Positions 558 through 12,568 of a stretch of DNA of 64,000 nt are shown in pieces. How positions within the stretch are numbered: the first letter of the stretch is position 1; each line of letters opens with the position of its first letter. Origin of the DNA: Patescibacteria group bacterium. Its GTDB lineage: Bacteria > Patescibacteriota > Patescibacteriia > UBA9570 > JAHJKD01. Location: contig JAZDOC010000019.1 of NCBI GenBank assembly GCA_043798935.1, positions 10,322 through 74,321 on the forward strand, read 5' to 3'. Under the pieces are notes generated by a model, which worked only from the letters and a program-made list of their open reading frames with translations, was not told the DNA's origin and ran no database searches. The translations under genes and the position numbers were made by a program.

Positions 558-3401
558 ATGACGGAAAAAAAAAACAAATTTATAAATTTTGAAGAAGAAA
601 CATTAAAATTTTGGAATGAAAAGAAAATATTCGAAAAGAGCTTAGCTAAAGAATCGCCTCAAGGTGATTATGTCTTTTATGACGGTCCGCCATTTGCGAC
701 CGGCACGCCTCATTACGGGCATATTGTGGCATCACTAATGAAAGATGCTGTGCCGCGATTCTGGACCATGAACGGTTATCGTGTTGAACGACGTTGGGGC
801 TGGGATTGCCATGGATTGCCCATTGAAAATATCGTGGAAAAAGAAATGAATATTTTGAGCAAGAAACAGATTGAAGACGAGATTGGTATTGAAAAATTTA
901 ATGCCAGTTGTCGAAGTAAAGTTTTGATGTATGCTGATGAATGGAAAAAATTTATTCCCCGCATGGGTAGGTGGGTTGATATGGAAAATGCTTACAAAAC
1001 CATGGATCCTGATTTTATGGAAAGCATTTGGTGGGTATTCAAACAGCTTTGGGATAATAAATATATTTACGAGGGTCATAAATCCATGCATATTTGCCCC
1101 AGATGTGAAACCACCTTATCGCAATCTGAAGTTTCTCAAGGCTATAAAGAAGTTAAAGATATTTCAGTGATCGCAAAATTTAAACTTTTGGATGAAGATA
1201 ATACTTATATTTTAGCATGGACTACCACTCCGTGGACTCTACCTGGAAATGTTGCATTAGCCGTGGGCAACAATATTTACTATGTAAAAGTAAAAGCTGA
1301 TGGCGTACATTATATATTAGCGAAAGATGTGGTTGAGAAAATATTTGGTGATAAACCTTATGAAATTATTGAAAATTTACGCGGGATGAATTTATTGGAT
1401 AAAGCGTACGAGCCTTTATTCCCATATTTTGATAATCCGAATAATCGAGAAAAAGGTTTTCATGTTTACGATGGTGATTTTGTAATTACCGAAGAAGGAA
1501 CCGGCATTGTTCATATTGCACCGGCTTTTGGTGAAGACGATATGAAGCTCGGGCAGAGAAACAATTTGCCTTTCATTCAACATGTTGACAGCTCCGGACA
1601 CATGCAAAGCGAAGTGGTTGATTTTGCCGGTCAGAGTGTAAAACCATCAGAAGATCCACAAGTCATGGATATTAAAATTTTAAAGTGGTTAGCCGAGCAT
1701 GATAAATTATTTTCTAAAGAAAAATATACTCATACTTACCCGCATTGCTGGCGTTGTGATTCGCCATTATTAAATTATGCTACATCATCATGGTTCGTTA
1801 ATGTAACGGCTATGAAGGAAAAAATGATTAAATTAGCCGAAGAAATTAATTGGGTGCCGGCACATATTAAGCACGGTCGTTTTGGTAAATGGTTGGATGG
1901 TGCCCAAGACTGGTCTATTTCACGTCAGCGTTTCTGGGGGTCAGTGCTTCCAATTTGGCGCTGTGATAAATGCCAAGAAACACAAATATTTGGATCCAAG
2001 CAAGAATTAGAACAACGAACCAATCAAACCATAACCGATTTGCACAAAGATCAAATGGATAAAATAGTTTATGACTGTGATAAATGTTCCGGTGTTATGC
2101 GTCGTATTCCAGATGTTTTAGATTGTTGGTTTGAATCCGGTTCCATGCCTTATGCGCAAATGCATTACCCCATTGAAAATAAGGAAAAATTTGAGGCAAA
2201 TTTTCCGGCCGAGTTTATTGCCGAAGGAGTGGATCAAACTCGTTGTTGGTTTTATTATTTACTTGTTTTAGCCACCGGTGTTAAAGCTAAAATTCCTTTT
2301 AAAAATGTAATTGCGAATGGCATCGTACTTGCTGAAGACGGACAAAAAATGTCCAAACGTTTAAGAAATTATCCTGATCCAAATCAAGTTATCAACAAAT
2401 ATGGCGCCGATGCTTTGCGTTATTATTTATTAACTTCACCCGTTATGAAGGGCGATACTTTATTATTTTCCGAAAAGGTAGTTGATGAAGTATTTAAAAA
2501 GTTAATCATGATATTGGAAAATGTTTTAACTTTTTACAAAATGTATGCGACCAGCGGAATAGTTGGCACAACAAATTCGACAAATGTTATCGATCGTTGG
2601 ATATTGGCTAAACTTGAAGTTCTAAAACAAGAGGTAACAAACCAAATGCGCGCTTATGATTTGGTATTAGCTTCCCGACCCATTATCGAGTTTGTTAGCG
2701 AGCTTTCCACGTGGTATTTGCGTCGTAGCCGGGATCGTTTTAAGAGTGCAGATTTAGACGACAAAAATAATGCATTAAGTACTATGGCTTATGTTTTAAA
2801 TACGCTGAGTAAAATTTTAGCACCATTTACACCTTTTACAGCTGAACGTTTGTATCAGCAAGTATTTGGCAGTTTAGAGTCAGTGCATCTTGAAGCGTGG
2901 CCGACGGCGCAAAGCGAATTGATCAATGAAAGCTTATTAAGCGACATGAAAAAAATTCGCGAAGCCGTTGAGAAAGGTTTAGCGCTACGGGAAGAAGCTA
3001 AAATTAAAGTTCGCCAACCATTAAATAATTTACAAATTATAGAAGCGGTTGAAGATGAGAATCTATTAGCTTTATTAAAAGCCGAAGTAAATGTTAAAAA
3101 TATTTCCATCGGATCAGACTACCAACTCGATACTGCGCTGACTCCAGAATTAGTGAACGAGGGATTGCTTCGCGAACTAGTGCGCGCAATTAATGCCATG
3201 CGAAAGAAATTATCTCTAACTATCGCAGATAAAGCGTTAGTAACTTATCAGACAAACGATGTAGCTTTAGTTAAAATAATTAAAGATAATTTGAAATATT
3301 TAATGGCCAAAACAAAAACTCAAGAATTTATTGCTGGCCCGGCTGATCAAGAAGTAAAAATTAATGACAAAGTAATTAATTTGAAAATTGACAAAGTATA
3401 A
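558..3401 (+). CDS. ileS: Isoleucyl-tRNA synthetase
   Basis: 947 aa. Class I HIGH motif PPFATGTPHYGH, KMSKR (KMSKS variant), GWDCHGLPIE, CWRCDSPL zinc knuckle. Matches the overall IleS architecture. Confidence 0.9.
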   Translation: MTEKKNKFINFEEETLKFWNEKKIFEKSLAKESPQGDYVFYDGPPFATGTPHYGHIVASLMKDAVPRFWTMNGYRVERRWGWDCHGLPIENIVEKEMNILSKKQIEDEIGIEKFNASCRSKVLMYADEWKKFIPRMGRWVDMENAYKTMDPDFMESIWWVFKQLWDNKYIYEGHKSMHICPRCETTLSQSEVSQGYKEVKDISVIAKFKLLDEDNTYILAWTTTPWTLPGNVALAVGNNIYYVKVKADGVHYILAKDVVEKIFGDKPYEIIENLRGMNLLDKAYEPLFPYFDNPNNREKGFHVYDGDFVITEEGTGIVHIAPAFGEDDMKLGQRNNLPFIQHVDSSGHMQSEVVDFAGQSVKPSEDPQVMDIKILKWLAEHDKLFSKEKYTHTYPHCWRCDSPLLNYATSSWFVNVTAMKEKMIKLAEEINWVPAHIKHGRFGKWLDGAQDWSISRQRFWGSVLPIWRCDKCQETQIFGSKQELEQRTNQTITDLHKDQMDKIVYDCDKCSGVMRRIPDVLDCWFESGSMPYAQMHYPIENKEKFEANFPAEFIAEGVDQTRCWFYYLLVLATGVKAKIPFKNVIANGIVLAEDGQKMSKRLRNYPDPNQVINKYGADALRYYLLTSPVMKGDTLLFSEKVVDEVFKKLIMILENVLTFYKMYATSGIVGTTNSTNVIDRWILAKLEVLKQEVTNQMRAYDLVLASRPIIEFVSELSTWYLRRSRDRFKSADLDDKNNALSTMAYVLNTLSKILAPFTPFTAERLYQQVFGSLESVHLEAWPTAQSELINESLLSDMKKIREAVEKGLALREEAKIKVRQPLNNLQIIEAVEDENLLALLKAEVNVKNISIGSDYQLDTALTPELVNEGLLRELVRAINAMRKKLSLTIADKALVTYQTNDVALVKIIKDNLKYLMAKTKTQEFIAGPADQEVKINDKVINLKIDKV

Positions 3402-3410
3402 AAAGCGTTT

Positions 3411-4034
3411 ATGGCGATTACATTTAAGTCACCCGGCGTTATAATTACATATAAAGATTATAAAGAAGCTGACCGGTTGTATACGATTTACACTTTAAAC
3501 TATGGCAAGCTTCATTTGCGAGCCGTGGGAGTTAAAAAGATAAAGTCCAAATTAAGCGGTCATCTCGAGCCGTTATGTGAGAGTGATTTATTCATGGCGA
3601 AAAGTAAAACCATTTCTATTATTGGCGGTGCCAGAATAATTAATAGCCATAAGAAAATTAAATTAGACATAGATAAAATCAGAATTATTAATTATTGTTT
3701 AGCGATTTTTAATGATTTGGTTTTAGAAGAACAAGCTGATGAAGAATTGTATTGTTTGTTAACTGGGTTATTGGATTTTGCAAACAGTTACAGTATAAAT
3801 GAACTTATTGAAATTTCATTTGTTTTAAAACTGCTAAATAATCTTGGCTTGCAACCAAATTATTCAGATTATAATAATGATTTGGCAAAAATATTAAGTT
3901 TTTTAAGTCGAGATGATTTTGCTAGTGTTAGCAGATTGCGTTTAACTCAAAAACAGTGGGTTATCCTAAATAATACATTTATAAATCTGATAAAAATTAA
4001 TCAGAATAAAGAATTTACAAAGCTTGTAAAATAA
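3411..4034 (+). CDS. recO: DNA repair protein RecO (short form)
   Basis: 207 aa. N-terminal OB-fold pattern GVIITYKDYKEADRLYTIYTLNYGKLHLRAVGVKK..S.L...LEPL follows the RecO consensus (GIVL..Y.E.DRI..L.T...GK.....G.++). Confidence 0.6.
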   Translation: MAITFKSPGVIITYKDYKEADRLYTIYTLNYGKLHLRAVGVKKIKSKLSGHLEPLCESDLFMAKSKTISIIGGARIINSHKKIKLDIDKIRIINYCLAIFNDLVLEEQADEELYCLLTGLLDFANSYSINELIEISFVLKLLNNLGLQPNYSDYNNDLAKILSFLSRDDFASVSRLRLTQKQWVILNNTFINLIKINQNKEFTKLVK

Positions 4035-7283: not shown

Positions 7284-7658
7284 ATGGAGCAATACGTGAG
7301 CGAATACCGAGATATGAAAAAAGTCTATGCTTTATGGGCTGGATTAATAATATCGAATGCCATGTATTTTTTTGTTATCTATTATCTCAATTTAAATACT
7401 GATATTTTAAAGCCATTTTTACAATGGCCGCGATTTTTTATATTAATTTTAAGTTTTCAGCTTTTACTAATAGCTCTAGCAGTTTTTTTTAAATTTTCTC
7501 AGCATCGTGAGCATATTGCCTGGGTCATGGCCGACAGTGTCGGAGTAATTGGTTTTTTGTATTTTTGGCTATGGGGGTATAATCCTTTTTTCTATGCCAA
7601 CTTTGCTACTTCGTTTTTACTGATTCTAATTCTCGGGCCATATCTTCATTTTGATTAA
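7284..7658 (+). CDS. Integral membrane protein, function unknown
   Basis: 124 aa, 3-4 hydrophobic helices, no recognisable motif. Confidence 0.5.
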   Translation: MEQYVSEYRDMKKVYALWAGLIISNAMYFFVIYYLNLNTDILKPFLQWPRFFILILSFQLLLIALAVFFKFSQHREHIAWVMADSVGVIGFLYFWLWGYNPFFYANFATSFLLILILGPYLHFD

Positions 7659-7692
7659 TAAACTAATTAATTTAATAATTTATAATAAATAT

Positions 7693-8853
7693 ATGACTCA
7701 ACATGATAAATTACCCAAACCATCTAAACCAGTAGATCCTCGCGATCCTTCAGTTGATGCAGGTGAAACGAATGCTAGAATAGAAGCACGAAGAAAAATT
7801 GATAATTCAATGAAAGTTTTAAGAGAGTTTTTATTTAAAAGTTATCAATCACCACAGGAACAGTATCGTGAAATCAGTAATAATAGAGCTCATTTTGATA
7901 CATTGTTTAAAAATAGTGAACATTTGAGAGGTGCTGATATCAGCGGCTTACAAGCCATTGAACAACAATTTTGTATTTTATTATTGGGTAATGACGATTT
8001 TTTATATGACCCAGACATGCGAGTAATCGCACAGAAATTAGTGCGCTTGAATAATGATGTTGAACAAAGAATTTTTCCTGATCGCTATACTTCTCTTGAA
8101 GCCGCCGAAGCCATGGAAAAAAGTCAACATGCTATACAACCGACAGATAACTCGATGATAATGGGCTTGCAAAGGCTTACTTATTTACGAATGGCTACTG
8201 ATCCTAAGACTGTTCATGGACAGATGCAAAAAGCTTTAAAAGACAAGCCAGCATCTATACGCAGAGATCCACAAGTTTCTACTGGTGATTTCGAGGATAG
8301 TCCTGGGCTTAGGGATGAATCAGCTACAATTAGGCATTATGCTGAAGGTGTAGTGCCGACATATAGTGATCAAGCGGAACCAGCCTCAACTCAACCTGCC
8401 GTGGTTCGTATCGAGCGTCAAAGCCCGGAGCAACTACATGCCAGAATCTTAGAAGGATTAACCGGCATGAAACGCGATCTTGAGTTTATCAAACAAGCAA
8501 TTGATAATGGCGCTACTAATTTATTAGGATTTAAAAGCAATGAACAATATAAAGATTTAGTTACATTATTCGATAATAGTGAATTCCAACCTATAGATTA
8601 TGAAAGAGAGCTCTTGGACTTACAAACCCAATTTGATGGCCTACAAGCACAACATCCGGAAATAATGGCCACAGCCATACGGATTAATTTTGAATTTGAT
8701 TTATTAAGTAAATGGTTAGAGAGTACTAGATCAACCGTAACTCCCATTAACAGAGGCTTAAAATTTAAACAAACAGCATACCATGATGCTGTACAAAGCC
8801 AGAGTACGTCTATTGGTTTTTGGGCCAGGGTTAAAAAAACATTAGGCATTTAA
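7693..8853 (+). CDS. Hypothetical soluble protein, compositionally atypical (orphan)
   Basis: The ORF is open from TTG at 7651, but the first ATG is 7693 (MTQHDKLPKP...). No TM helices and no known motif. It is Q/E/R/D/P-rich and poor in K/I/N compared with neighbouring genes. Local GC is visibly higher. Confidence 0.55.
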   Translation: MTQHDKLPKPSKPVDPRDPSVDAGETNARIEARRKIDNSMKVLREFLFKSYQSPQEQYREISNNRAHFDTLFKNSEHLRGADISGLQAIEQQFCILLLGNDDFLYDPDMRVIAQKLVRLNNDVEQRIFPDRYTSLEAAEAMEKSQHAIQPTDNSMIMGLQRLTYLRMATDPKTVHGQMQKALKDKPASIRRDPQVSTGDFEDSPGLRDESATIRHYAEGVVPTYSDQAEPASTQPAVVRIERQSPEQLHARILEGLTGMKRDLEFIKQAIDNGATNLLGFKSNEQYKDLVTLFDNSEFQPIDYERELLDLQTQFDGLQAQHPEIMATAIRINFEFDLLSKWLESTRSTVTPINRGLKFKQTAYHDAVQSQSTSIGFWARVKKTLGI

Positions 8854-8978: not shown

Positions 8979-9302
8979 ATGGATGAGGCCATGTTTCCTA
9001 GAACTGCACGCTTACCGATTCATGAACAAGCCATCAAAACTGCTAAAATGAGATCAGAGTTGAAAACAATTAATCCCAGTAAAACTATTACCGGTGCAGA
9101 ACAAGATATTGAAAATTGGCATATTGATTTATTATTTTCTAAATTACAAGATTGGCTACAAACTAGAATTACTCATATTAAATATAGCTTTGAGCTGGTT
9201 GATTTTATAGATATTCCATATATTGATATATTAATCGATAAAATAAGGTCTTATCAATTAAATAATCGTGATGAGAGATTGATATATATTCGAAATAATT
9301 AG
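8979..9302 (+). CDS. Hypothetical protein (107 aa)
   Basis: ORF only. No motif. Composition is similar to the 7693-8853 gene. Confidence 0.4.
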   Translation: MDEAMFPRTARLPIHEQAIKTAKMRSELKTINPSKTITGAEQDIENWHIDLLFSKLQDWLQTRITHIKYSFELVDFIDIPYIDILIDKIRSYQLNNRDERLIYIRNN

Positions 9303-9422: not shown

Positions 9423-9803
9423 ATGACACTAATTTTAAATACAATAAAATTTATTGCCAAAGACATTGTTGGCAATGTGTTTTATTTTCCAATTTGGTGG
9501 TACACGGCCGGGGCATTTAAAATTTTGCGTCGAATTAAAAATGATATACAAAGTTTTGCTCGTGAATTAAGTATCGGTATATTATTTCGTTATCTATTTA
9601 AACCCATGTATGGGCTGACTGATTTTTGGAGCCGGGTAATTAGTTTTATGGTACGAATAGTCCATTTCGCAGTTTTATTAATCGTCACGATTATTTGGGT
9701 ATTAATTTTATTGTTTTTATTTTTAATTTGGCTGGCTTTGCCATTATTTGTGGTTTATAATCTTTTGTACCAAATCGGCGTAGTTGAAAAATTATTTATA
9801 TGA
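9423..9803 (+). CDS. Small integral membrane protein, translationally coupled to the downstream Clp-like ATPase
   Basis: 126 aa, 3 TM helices. Its stop TGA (9801-9803) overlaps the ATG (9800-9802) of the next gene as ATGA. Confidence 0.5.
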   Translation: MTLILNTIKFIAKDIVGNVFYFPIWWYTAGAFKILRRIKNDIQSFARELSIGILFRYLFKPMYGLTDFWSRVISFMVRIVHFAVLLIVTIIWVLILLFLFLIWLALPLFVVYNLLYQIGVVEKLFI

Positions 9804-12568
9804 GCTTTAACCAAAACAACAAATCATTTCAAATGGTTGCCTGCCCGCGCTGTGATGGTTATGGATATGCTTTGAATTTAAAAGGCGAACATGTTAAATG
9901 CGCTCATTGCCAAGAAACCGACAGTATGTACGGTTTCGTGGATGATCAAATTTTATATTGGCATAAAGAAATAAATAATTTTACAATTATTCAAGAAAAA
10001 AGTCAGGCACTAATAAAAAATTTTATTAATTTTATTTTAATTTTATTAAGCATTGTCGGTTTCACTGCCCTGGCGTGGCATTTTTTTCAAAATCAAAATT
10101 CTAGCTCGCACTTTTTTAATTTATTATTTTCTCGACACGATTTAGTTTTATTATTCTGGGTATCAGTAGTTGGTGATATGTATATTTATTATCGTCTTTC
10201 TTTAGATAGTGAACGCAAAATTAAAATCAGAGCGCGTGAACTGGGGGCTGAATTAAAACTCATTAAACAATCTTTGAATTGGAAAATTTTATATAGCACC
10301 GATGCAAGTAAAAAATTAAACATTGCCAAATTCTTCAATCAAGAAGCTTTGCAAATTATTAACAGCGCTTATCTGATGGCTCTGCATAATAAGCAACACG
10401 AAATTTTACCCATCGATTTATTAATTGCTGTTTCTAAAAGCCAAGATGTGCACATGATTTTAGCACGCTTAAATATATATTATAAAGATTATTACGATAA
10501 AATCCGTCATGTTTTAACTCATCATTCGGCGACTGACGAACGCGGTTTAGATTTTGGCGCGGCCATTGAAAAAGCATTTTTAGCCGCTTATTTTCAGGCT
10601 TATAAAAATCGCCGCGAACTAGTGACGCCGGTAGAATTATTAATGGGTTTGCTTGAAGCAGATAAATTAACCCAAGATATTTTTTGCGATTTAAATATTG
10701 ATTTACAGCAAATTACCAATGTTTGCGAGTGGATCCATTTAGATAAACAACTAATTAAATGGGCTCGTCACCATCGCTCTTTATCTCGCTCCAAACCTAA
10801 AAATCACATGAATCGGTCCATGACAGCTCGCCCTACAAAAACCCTGGATAGTGTTTCACAAGATCTAACCATTCAAGCTAAATATAATCACTTTTTACCG
10901 CTGGTAGGTCGTGAAAAAGAAATTGCCGAATCTTTTCGAATTTTAAAAGAGGGGCGGGGATCGGTAATTTTGCTCGGTGAATCCGGAACCGGTAAAACCA
11001 CTATACTTGAAGGCGTGGCTCAACTAATGGCTAGTGAAGATGTGCCGGAAAATTTACAGGATAAACGTTTAGTTTCGCTTGACCCAGGAGTATTGATTGC
11101 CGGAGCCAGTGGTGTTGGCGGGCTGGAAGGACGCATGGTGCAAATTTTAAACGAAATCGTAATGGCCGGAAATGTAATTCTAGCCATTGAAGATATTCAT
11201 AATTTACTTAATGCCAGGTCTACTCAATCCGGTAGCGATGTGGGTGAAATTTTAATGAATTATATTTCTCAAGGTTATATTCAGGTACTGGCTACTTCTA
11301 CAACCCAAGAGTTTAGAAAATACATCGCTAACAAAGAAACCTTCCTGCGCCGATTTCAAGTGGTTAAAATTTCCGAGATGTCGATCGATGAAGCTATTAA
11401 TGTTTTAGAAGCGCGCGCCGGATTTATTGAAGCCAAAGAAAAAGTTTATTTTTCATATTCAGCGCTTGAGTCTTGCGTGAAGTTAAGTGAGCGTTATATT
11501 AAAGATCGCCACTTACCATCTAAAGCTCTGGATATTTTAGAAGAGTCGGCTATTTATTGTAGAGAGAAAAAAGGCGTCGGCTCATTAGTTAATAAAGACG
11601 ACGTGGCGACGGTGTTAGCTGAAAAAACAAATGTTGAAGTAAATTCAATTACTCAGTCTGAGGCTAGTAAGCTGTTAAATTTGGAAGAATTAATGCACGA
11701 GCGAATAGTAGGGCAAAACGAAGCCATTGATGCGATTGCCAAAGCCTTACGACGCGCCCGAGAAGATCTGCGTGATAATAATCGGCCCATAGCCAGCTTT
11801 TTATTTTTGGGTCCGACTGGTGTGGGTAAAACCGAAACCGCTAAAACCATAGCTGAAGTATATTTTGGCGACGAAAAAAATATGATTAGGCTTGATATGA
11901 GCGAATACCAGTCTTCTCAAAGCGTGTCTAAGATGATTGGCGATGAAGACCATAAAGGCTATCTTACTGAGGCTATTCGTCAGCAACCATTTTCCATTAT
12001 TCTGCTGGATGAAATTGAAAAAGCTCATCCAGACATATTGAATTTGTTTCTTCAGGTTACTGATGACGGCCGGCTAACCGATGGCCAGGGACGCACCATA
12101 GATTTTACTAACGCTGTAATTGTGGCCACATCGAATGCGGCGACACAAGCAATTCAAGACGGCATAAAAAGTAATTTACCTTTTAGTGATATTTATGACG
12201 GCTTAATGGATGGAGTATTAGAACAATATTTTAGAGTCGAGTTTTTAAATCGCTTCGATAAAATTGTTATTTATAAACCTCTCGAACAGGATCAAGTAAT
12301 TGAAATAACCAGACGGTTGCTCATCAAATTAGCTGACCAATTAGAACAAAAAGGCATTATTTTTGATGCCGAAGATGAAGCGGTACAAGTGTTAGCTAAA
12401 AAAGGTTATAGTCAGAAATTTGGTGCTCGTCCATTAAAGCGTATTCTCCAAGATACGGTTGATGATGCTCTGGCTAAACTAATGCTTAGTAATTCCATTG
12501 GTCGGCGCGATAGTGTTTTACTCAAAGCTAATGGAGAACTGGAAATCCAAAAAGCTGAAAAACTGTAA
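9800..12568 (+). CDS. ClpB/ClpC-family double-ring AAA+ ATPase with N-terminal C4 zinc ribbon and transmembrane anchor
   Basis: 922 aa. CPRCDGYGY..CAHCQ (res 15-38). Two hydrophobic helices (about res 75-135). Two Clp_N-like repeats. D1 Walker A GESGTGKTT and Walker B AIEDIH (DE to ED). D1/D2 linker about 25 aa with no ClpB M-domain. D2 Walker A GPTGVGKTE and Walker B ILLDEIEKAHPD. LPF where ClpC has the VGF ClpP-docking loop. Confidence 0.8.
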   Translation: MSFNQNNKSFQMVACPRCDGYGYALNLKGEHVKCAHCQETDSMYGFVDDQILYWHKEINNFTIIQEKSQALIKNFINFILILLSIVGFTALAWHFFQNQNSSSHFFNLLFSRHDLVLLFWVSVVGDMYIYYRLSLDSERKIKIRARELGAELKLIKQSLNWKILYSTDASKKLNIAKFFNQEALQIINSAYLMALHNKQHEILPIDLLIAVSKSQDVHMILARLNIYYKDYYDKIRHVLTHHSATDERGLDFGAAIEKAFLAAYFQAYKNRRELVTPVELLMGLLEADKLTQDIFCDLNIDLQQITNVCEWIHLDKQLIKWARHHRSLSRSKPKNHMNRSMTARPTKTLDSVSQDLTIQAKYNHFLPLVGREKEIAESFRILKEGRGSVILLGESGTGKTTILEGVAQLMASEDVPENLQDKRLVSLDPGVLIAGASGVGGLEGRMVQILNEIVMAGNVILAIEDIHNLLNARSTQSGSDVGEILMNYISQGYIQVLATSTTQEFRKYIANKETFLRRFQVVKISEMSIDEAINVLEARAGFIEAKEKVYFSYSALESCVKLSERYIKDRHLPSKALDILEESAIYCREKKGVGSLVNKDDVATVLAEKTNVEVNSITQSEASKLLNLEELMHERIVGQNEAIDAIAKALRRAREDLRDNNRPIASFLFLGPTGVGKTETAKTIAEVYFGDEKNMIRLDMSEYQSSQSVSKMIGDEDHKGYLTEAIRQQPFSIILLDEIEKAHPDILNLFLQVTDDGRLTDGQGRTIDFTNAVIVATSNAATQAIQDGIKSNLPFSDIYDGLMDGVLEQYFRVEFLNRFDKIVIYKPLEQDQVIEITRRLLIKLADQLEQKGIIFDAEDEAVQVLAKKGYSQKFGARPLKRILQDTVDDALAKLMLSNSIGRRDSVLLKANGELEIQKAEKL

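Follow-up and report, generated by a model that had tools for sequence, protein, structure and literature searches.

Hsp100/Clp proteins are known from textbooks as soluble threading motors, and among them ClpE places an N-terminal zinc finger ahead of its two-ring Clp body. Torsins, in turn, are Clp/Hsp100 relatives without aromatic pore loops, which associate with the membrane through an N-terminal hydrophobic region and are controlled by the transmembrane cofactors LAP1 and LULL1 (PMC5425593). Where does a bacterial protein belong that combines a complete second ATPase ring with a zinc ribbon, a predicted membrane hairpin and a small membrane protein as its constant genomic neighbor? We address this question for a gene pair in a 64,000-nucleotide stretch of DNA from a Patescibacteria group bacterium (contig JAZDOC010000019.1; the whole stretch is referred to as the window), in which a 126-residue membrane protein is encoded directly upstream of a 922-residue ATPase with two tandem AAA+ rings, D1 and D2. 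By its sequence, the ATPase is a member of the Clp/Hsp100 superfamily that fails the defining tests of ClpA, ClpB, ClpC, ClpE, the ClpX-type zinc-binding domain, FtsH and Torsin. Our leading, still tentative reading is that the pair would form a membrane-tethered complex, driven by D2 and independent of ClpP, that remodels or regulates its targets without threading them.

The two open reading frames (ORFs) lie on the + strand and share four nucleotides, the stop codon of the small one and the ATG of the large one overlapping as ATGA (9800-9803). A preliminary description of this interval, made from the letters alone, had noted this overlap and had proposed a Clp double-ring ATPase with an N-terminal C4 zinc ribbon and two hydrophobic helices ahead of Clp_N, anchored in the membrane, devoid of a ClpB M-domain and of a ClpP-docking motif, reading IEDIH in the D1 Walker B and not previously characterized; all of these points are upheld by the evidence given below. 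Pfam profiles place the large protein among the class I Clp/Hsp100 proteins, with AAA in two stretches, AAA_2 (E = 7.9e-51), AAA_lid_9 (1.3e-11) and ClpB_D2-small (1.1e-18), that is, with two tandem AAA+ modules and both accessory domains of this class. Clp_N (PF02861) stands in the precomputed Pfam list of an identical database protein (P0014), and the corresponding region forms helical repeats in the AlphaFold2 (AF2) model, which has a mean predicted local distance difference test score (pLDDT) of 85.9. The NCBIfam ClpA model (TIGR02639) spans residues 182-899 unbroken, at 490.1 bits against a cut-off of 993.15; the ClpB equivalog TIGR03346 reaches 552.4 bits against 1232.1, and every other NCBIfam equivalog model likewise scores far under its cut-off. 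In a sequence comparison with the PDB, the nearest solved structures are those of soluble ClpC, ClpB, ClpC1, ClpE and ClpA.

The protein belongs to a well-delimited family, for which we assembled about 85 Patescibacteria protein clusters; counts over full-length relatives refer to 79 proteins. A full-length search returns about 80 clusters, all of Patescibacteria type, whose alignments take in 95% or more of the query, its N-terminus included. They are followed by a sharp break to canonical ClpC proteins with 61-70% coverage and with UVR and NBD_SMAX1 domains; PF02151 (UVR) and PF23569 turn up in the canonical matches from P0095 on and in no family member. The N-terminal extension of the 922-residue protein is no annotation artefact. 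In an exhaustive HMMER search of 1.84 billion proteins, each the representative of a cluster (E <= 1e-3), the N-terminal module has 319 representatives and is always N-terminal, in proteins of about 900-930 residues or in shorter ones that are fragments.

This extension begins with a C4 pair, CPRC at residue 15 and CAHC at residue 34, in a ribbon that is modeled by AF2 as five beta strands with a block-mean pLDDT of about 82-89. Both CxxC motifs are kept in 63 of the 79 full-length relatives. The window protein and 52 of the 79 conform to CxxCxGxG at the first knuckle; the ribbon is missing in some lineages (L002, L009, L004 and L006). Matches of the N-terminal modules to DnaJ_CXXCXGXG, Anti-TRAP and BSD2_CRD are sub-threshold and confined to distant members, the DnaJ cysteine-rich domain (PF00684) reaching at most 18 bits there against a cut-off of 32.7 and giving no match for the window protein. 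A ClpX-type zinc-binding domain was considered and rejected, with three N-terminal modules giving no Pfam match to zf-C4_ClpX even at E <= 10.

The two hydrophobic helices that follow the ribbon differ in strength. The first transmembrane (TM) segment, TM1, is clear, with a Kyte-Doolittle (KD) value of 2.27 and an insertion free energy (dG) of -1.2 on the Hessa scale; in the AF2 model it lies within a long helix (60-97) that opens with a conserved juxtamembrane YW.K motif. By a KD scan, all full-length relatives and no canonical ClpC have an N-terminal TM segment, and a stricter Hessa test, which asks for a window with dG<0 in the first 200 residues, is passed by 64 of the 79 full-length relatives as opposed to 0 of 35 canonical ClpC proteins. 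The second helix is of marginal hydrophobicity on the Hessa scale, but it is a helix in the AF2 model and bears the family signature FW.S...D...YYR, in which the Asp is Asp126; across the 85 members its conservation amounts to 65 for F119, 68 for W120, 62 for S122, 56 for D126 and 70 for R132. Across 77 members, Lys plus Arg residues number 3.5 on the N-terminal flank, drop to 1.1 in the loop of 20 residues and return to 3.6 on the C-terminal flank. By the positive-inside rule, this distribution supports a hairpin with both ends inside and the loop outside, the orientation that a cytoplasmic ATPase needs. Anchoring of the ATPase by this predicted N-terminal hairpin is supported by hydropathy, by charge distribution and by the model.

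In the body of the protein, motif states were taken from a MAFFT alignment of the 85 family members with canonical ClpC, with which independent HMMER alignments to solved structures agree; the invariance of D2 motifs was judged in a 73-member alignment. The M-domain is absent: the two Walker A motifs are 278 residues apart, as compared to 337 in ClpC, and the alignment with ClpC has a 62-column gap in this region. In D1, an intact Walker A (GESGTGKT, 393-400) and RRFQ Arg fingers are accompanied by a Walker B that reads ILAIEDIH, with IEDIH at 463-467. Family-wide, this position is ED in 57 of the 85 members and DE in none, the others having DN, PN, NN, PD and the like, and in distant members the decay extends to the Walker A, which becomes GK[N/D/M/R/K/G] or loses the Lys, and to the Arg fingers, which are gone. 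The D1 pore loop reads AGASGVGGLE where ClpC has AGTKYRGEFE, so that KYR has become GVG and the Tyr is lost; only two of the 85 members have any aromatic residue there.

D2 presents the opposite picture in its catalytic motifs. Walker A (GPTGVGKT, 671-678), Walker B (LLDEIEK, 735-741), sensor-1 (N779) and the Arg finger (R818) are all intact in the window protein. The Walker B pattern DExEK is found in 85 of 85 members, which span down to about 33% identity, and Walker A, N779, R818 and the sensor-2 GARP are invariant or nearly so; the latter belongs to a GARPL motif in the C-terminal domain, of which G875, A876, R877 and P878 are invariant. Such conservation argues for strong purifying selection on hydrolysis. 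The D2 pore loop, on the other hand, is truncated (residues 711-722, KMIGDEDHKGYL): relative to Thermus thermophilus ClpB (1qvr), HMMER places a six-residue gap over 'pgyvgy', and PPGYVGY is deleted. The shortened loop reads IG.PGQ.G.L in many members, and GYxG is retained by only 5 of the 85. The aromatic threading loops that mark class I Hsp100 proteins, KYR in D1 and GYVG in D2, are thus both missing, a loss that the preliminary description had overlooked.

Equally consistent is the absence of the ClpP loop. Where ClpC carries LGF, all 85 members have a deletion of about 13 residues (783-803 in the window protein), and in comparison with 1qvr the region is gap-free and ClpB-like, without the [ILV]G[FL] of ClpA; a lone VGL match among the 85 members is incidental and no ClpP loop. 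An LPF in this region had initially been taken for a variant ClpP-docking tripeptide. This did not hold up, as LPF aligns gap-free to the WPY of T. thermophilus ClpB, at a site that varies across the family (LTS, LNS, ATS, EPL and others).

The small protein, the second part of the module, has no Pfam, NCBIfam or PADLOC match, and its model matches no PDB fold at E <= 0.001. A word-index search yields 13 homologues. An alignment of the small protein has 14 invariant columns, with the motifs YFPIWWY..G and F.PMYG..D..R.ISF..R, after which the C-terminal part is hydrophobic over about 40 residues. Within this stretch lies a very strong TM segment (84-102, Hessa dG -7.6). AF2 predicts two long helices (2-48 and 68-117) at a pLDDT of 81.4, the N-terminal one being rich in aromatic residues, so that the number of membrane spans, given as three in the preliminary description, may be anywhere from 1 to 3. 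Both gene products qualify as predicted integral membrane proteins, each with an inserting segment (dG -1.2 for the ATPase and -7.6 for its neighbor) and, in the case of the ATPase, a topology consistent with the positive-inside rule.

The pairing of the two genes is strikingly constant. The small gene immediately precedes the Clp gene in 28 of 28 distinct evaluable loci, very distant relatives among them; the junctions measure about -13 to +8 nucleotides, and the association holds down to relatives with only about 38-42% identity. It was found from either side: seven look-ups that started from homologues of the small protein met a long Clp gene immediately downstream each time, in differing wider contexts, while the D1 'IEDIH' region, run against the GTDB species representatives, returned 20 loci, several of them from Candidatus Kerfeldbacteria, and a hidden Markov model of the small protein matched the ORF directly upstream in all 18 loci in which the contig reaches the Clp start. 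A homologous small ORF also precedes, by 1-12 nucleotides, the genes of three distant Clp relatives (E-values 1.4e-40, 4.4e-39 and 2e-13), among them a protein of Paceibacterota type whose D1 is dead.

This two-gene membrane module appears to be restricted to Patescibacteria. In a rough neighbor-joining tree without support values, the family is monophyletic and separated from ClpC by a long branch, and the five members that retain GYxG sit in three separate places among loop-less lineages. Such a scattered retention suggests, as far as the sequences can tell, that the D2 Tyr loop was lost repeatedly, while the ATPase motifs remained under selection. Some carriers deviate in length. A class of about 600 residues (P0162, P0171, P0180, P0183, P0186, P0189, P0192, P0195, P0215 and P0223) shares the module of zinc ribbon and TM helices as well as Clp_N and possesses a D1 that often shows a degenerate Walker A; it ends uniformly at '...VPYTKILK', the D1/D2 junction, D2 being missing or separately encoded. 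In P0172 (1231 residues) there is an extra C-terminal extension of about 300 residues, which ends in a hydrophobic segment with a basic tail and may be a second membrane anchor. Seven of the module-carrying metagenome-assembled genomes among the GTDB representatives (L011, L016, L017, L019, L022, L028 and L029) are labeled 'uncultured Gammaproteobacteria bacterium' and are probably mislabeled bins.

How does this architecture compare with the described members of the superfamily? The order of N-domain, D1 and D2 without an M-domain is that of ClpA (1ksf, 6w1z), with which residues 323-901 form one continuous alignment, and the Walker A spacing agrees as well, at about 278-281 in the window protein and Escherichia coli ClpA. 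ClpA, however, is soluble and has KYR and GYVG loops, DE in D1 and an IGL ClpP loop, none of which occur in the window protein. The best overall PDB match is to ClpC/MecB of Bacillus subtilis and Staphylococcus aureus (3j3t, 6em9; 462 bits), and D1 is closest to the D1 of ClpC; yet ClpC and ClpE are soluble, with a short M-domain or UVR, an LGF or VGF ClpP loop and intact pore loops, whereas in the window protein M-domain/UVR and ClpP loop are absent and the zinc ribbon is followed by TM helices. D2, finally, is closest to that of ClpB/Hsp104 (1qvr, 4d2q; 195 bits), and the segment at the ClpP-loop position has ClpB length, independence of ClpP being a further likeness; unlike these, the window protein is membrane-anchored and lacks the pore-loop Tyr residues as well as the long coiled-coil M-domain, the Walker A spacing of 278 contrasting with 404 in a ClpB-like paralogue of another locus (L004).

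Among membrane AAA+ proteins, FtsH and Msp1/ATAD1 share with the family an N-terminal anchor that sets the entry face of the AAA+ ring at the membrane. In FtsH, this anchor is joined to one AAA ring, which has an aromatic pore loop and to which an M41 protease is fused; the window protein has two rings, no aromatic pore loop and, by Pfam, no peptidase domain. An FtsH-like topology without a protease, as the preliminary description had it, holds good as a geometry, the N-terminal anchor bringing the D1 face next to the membrane. The likeness to Torsin, which is the closest precedent by logic, consists in the absence of aromatic pore loops, the N-terminal membrane association and the membrane partner, and is an analogy of logic only: Torsin is a single-ring, luminal, eukaryotic protein without an intrinsic Arg finger, which is supplied by its cofactor, whereas the window protein has two rings on the cytoplasmic side, a near-invariant R818 of its own and a tiny partner without an AAA+ fold. 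Our literature searches turned up neither a membrane-anchored bacterial Hsp100 nor the small partner.

From these features a mechanism can be sketched. The two proteins would be made from the same transcript, and the ATPase would presumably assemble into a hexamer on the cytoplasmic face of the membrane. As the anchor is N-terminal, the D1 face should lie next to the bilayer, where six hairpins and the partner subunits could form a membrane ring. With no docking loop the ATPase is expected to work without ClpP, and with no M-domain there should be no coupling to DnaK/Hsp70. D1 is most likely an assembly or regulatory ring that binds nucleotide but is impaired in hydrolysis, since its Walker B is ED and never DE and its pore-loop Tyr is absent, which would leave D2 as the sole catalytic ring. 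Because the Tyr loops of both rings are missing, we infer that D2 does not use its ATP hydrolysis to thread polypeptides processively; this hydrolysis may instead power a cycle of conformational change or assembly through which a partner or client embedded in the membrane is remodeled or regulated, with the zinc ribbon and Clp_N possibly serving as recognition elements.

Several observations weigh against this scheme of a D2-driven, non-threading remodeler. The shortened D2 loop could still grip substrate in a non-canonical way, and the ED Walker B of D1 might retain slow hydrolysis. The ancestral protein, to judge from the five members that keep GYxG, probably threaded, and the argument from repeated loss rests on the rough tree described above. 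A physical interaction of the small protein with the ATPase is deduced from synteny and translational overlap, the only basis for it, and the sole specific test of it, the co-variation of Clp Asp126 with Arg71 or Arg78 of the partner, gave no signal: in three loci (L017, L027 and L030) the partner Arg is retained where the Clp Asp is lost, which neither favors nor disproves the idea of an intramembrane salt bridge. Moreover, as the ATPase has its own D2 Arg finger, unlike Torsin, the partner need not be an activator. All carrier organisms, finally, are uncultured.

Could the protein nevertheless be a conventional motor that extracts or unfolds membrane proteins and threads them into the cytoplasm, in an FtsH- or Msp1-like geometry without a protease? 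D1 would then face the membrane, and membrane or membrane-proximal clients would be grabbed by way of the small partner, Clp_N or the zinc ribbon. The N-terminal anchor indeed puts the substrate-entry face, formed by N-domain and D1, at the bilayer, the D2 motifs are those of a fully competent ATPase, the lack of a protease and of a ClpP loop is consistent with a stand-alone unfoldase, and, as some members keep a GYAG loop in D2, the ancestral protein plausibly threaded. Against this, the window protein, like about 80 of the 85 relatives, has the Tyr loop in neither ring; that these loops were lost repeatedly speaks against threading as the conserved function, and D1 cannot give normal hydrolysis. 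We therefore consider such an extractase rather unlikely, and the label 'unfoldase or extraction machine' of the preliminary description is not sustained by a D1 loop in which KYR has become GVG, a D2 loop from which PPGYVGY is deleted and the rarity of GYxG. If threading has been abandoned, one might go further and regard the protein as a decaying paralogue, a membrane scaffold or pseudo-enzyme that binds ATP for oligomerization only. The progressive degeneration of D1 in distant members, which affects the Ser/Thr or Lys of Walker A as well as Walker B and the Arg fingers, points this way, as do the loss of both pore loops and the existence of a class of about 600 residues that consists of the N-terminal module, Clp_N and a degenerate D1 only. 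The strong selection on hydrolysis in D2, with DExEK in every member and the other motifs invariant or nearly so, makes this improbable.

Two further interpretations start from annotation. Source annotations name a Clp protease ATP-binding subunit, and a membrane-tethered partner of ClpP in the manner of ClpA, ClpC or ClpE would accord with the ClpA-like domain order without an M-domain and with a zinc finger at the N-terminus, which ClpE and ClpX also have; with the docking loop deleted in all members and with scores far under the NCBIfam cut-offs (ClpA 490 versus 993, ClpB 552 versus 1232), we regard such a protease subunit as highly improbable, to which the absence of clpP from the window adds weak evidence. 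By tblastn, neither clpP nor clpX nor ftsH was found in the 64-kb window, which says nothing about the rest of the genome. A component of an anti-phage or conflict system, to which we give even less credence, is suggested by PADLOC matches of the D2 region to DolB (1.9e-35) and PDC-M37B (1.5e-32). These cover generic AAA_2 only, the small partner has no PADLOC match, the neighbors are housekeeping genes (tgt, glyS, recO, an M16 peptidase and rpoB/C) and vertical conservation of the pair extends across Patescibacteria lineages; the defense reading was rejected on the generic nature of the matches and the housekeeping context.

Features of the gene pair and of a possible accessory gene, with positions in the window
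Feature	Position	Strand	Evidence
Small conserved membrane protein, 126 aa, partner gene	9423..9803	+	ORF, homologues, hidden Markov model
Predicted membrane-tethered two-ring Clp/Hsp100-type ATPase, 922 aa	9800..12568	+	Pfam, NCBIfam, AF2
N-terminal C4 zinc ribbon, residues 11-53	9830..9958	+	CxxC motifs, AF2
TM1 core, residues 75-93	10022..10078	+	KD, Hessa, AF2
Second membrane helix, residues 114-138	10139..10213	+	AF2, conservation, positive-inside statistics
Clp_N-type helical N-domain, about residues 175-330	10322..10789	+	NCBIfam ClpA alignment, PF02861, AF2
D1 AAA+ ring, about residues 345-590	10832..11569	+	Motifs, HMMER alignment to ClpC 6em9
D2 AAA+ ring, about residues 620-825	11657..12274	+	Motifs, HMMER alignment to ClpB 1qvr
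ClpB_D2-small C-terminal domain, residues 828-906	12281..12517	+	Pfam PF10431, 1.1e-18
Possible lineage-specific accessory gene, 124-aa multi-pass membrane protein	7284..7658	+	Neighbor clustering, TM scan

Beyond the pair itself, neighbor clustering revealed no third gene linked in all loci. Recurrent neighbors are confined to sub-lineages and comprise a 124-residue membrane protein, a methyltransferase-like protein of about 172 residues, DUF4013, Glycos_transf_4, tgt/queH and a canonical Hsp100 paralogue. Homologues of the 124-residue protein of the window are encoded directly upstream of the small gene in eight other loci; its membership of the system is uncertain, and it is not universal. 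In the window, two ORFs without a Pfam match, 7651-8853 (400 residues, TTG start) and 8979-9302 (107 residues), lie between this gene and the pair and look like an insertion. On the downstream side, the protein of about 172 residues, which has an N-terminal TM helix and an S-adenosylmethionine-dependent methyltransferase-like DLGCG.GK motif, is the first ORF after the Clp gene in nine loci of one sub-lineage (L008, L013, L017-L020, L022, L026 and L028), the second in L024, and lies upstream in L015. DUF4013 takes the first downstream position in seven other loci and Glycos_transf_4 in L004, L006 and L030, in the last of which it overlaps the Clp stop codon. These downstream neighbors may hint at an envelope-related context. 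In L032, tgt and the small/Clp pair are separated by an insertion (2172-3563) of two genes, for the accessory protein bAvd and an RVT_1 reverse transcriptase, which together resemble a diversity-generating retroelement.

In six loci (L004, L006, L017, L018, L024 and L026), a canonical soluble Hsp100 paralogue is encoded near the membrane-anchored one, and these paralogues keep KFRG/KYRG, DE and GYIG/GYVG motifs. Their coexistence indicates that the membrane-anchored protein is a specialized paralogue and not the general disaggregase of the cell. The paralogue of L004 (213-2858, - strand, 881 residues) is an unusual mix: it has an M-domain of ClpB length, with the Walker A spacing of 404 given above, and reads TIGFNAQ, an IGF-type motif, at the ClpP-loop position, which recalls the engineered BAP variant of ClpB.

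The window itself has a GC content of about 33% and carries nearly all of its genes on one strand: 49 of its ORFs reach 150 residues or more, and 45 of these are on the + strand; over its entire length (1-64000), the cumulative GC skew climbs almost monotonically, consistent with a single replichore. ARAGORN found no tRNA genes in the window. A scan for promoters and terminators gave results no different from shuffled AT-rich sequence and does not define the operon limits.

What, then, would this family mean for our view of Clp/Hsp100 proteins? It keeps the catalytic D2 ring fully conserved yet has dropped the M-domain, the ClpP loop, the catalytic glutamate of D1 and both tyrosine paddles; by prediction it is now integral to the membrane, where a small partner obligately accompanies it. 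One may ask whether it is, by convergence, a bacterial counterpart of Torsin, having given up threading for an obligate complex with a tiny conserved membrane cofactor, in which ATP hydrolysis by the one active ring would remodel membrane or envelope assemblies in the ultra-small Patescibacteria; we consider this rather unlikely, and if it were true, the activity would, to our knowledge, be one not known for any bacterial Clp/Hsp100 protein. In databases, the family runs under the generic label 'ATP-dependent Clp protease ATP-binding subunit', a mislabel that could mislead metabolic and proteostasis reconstructions of Patescibacteria. More generally, the family challenges the assumption that all bacterial Hsp100 proteins act by threading, and it would offer a simple prokaryotic system in which to study how a Clp-type ring without pore loops works at a membrane, the same question that stands for the Torsins.

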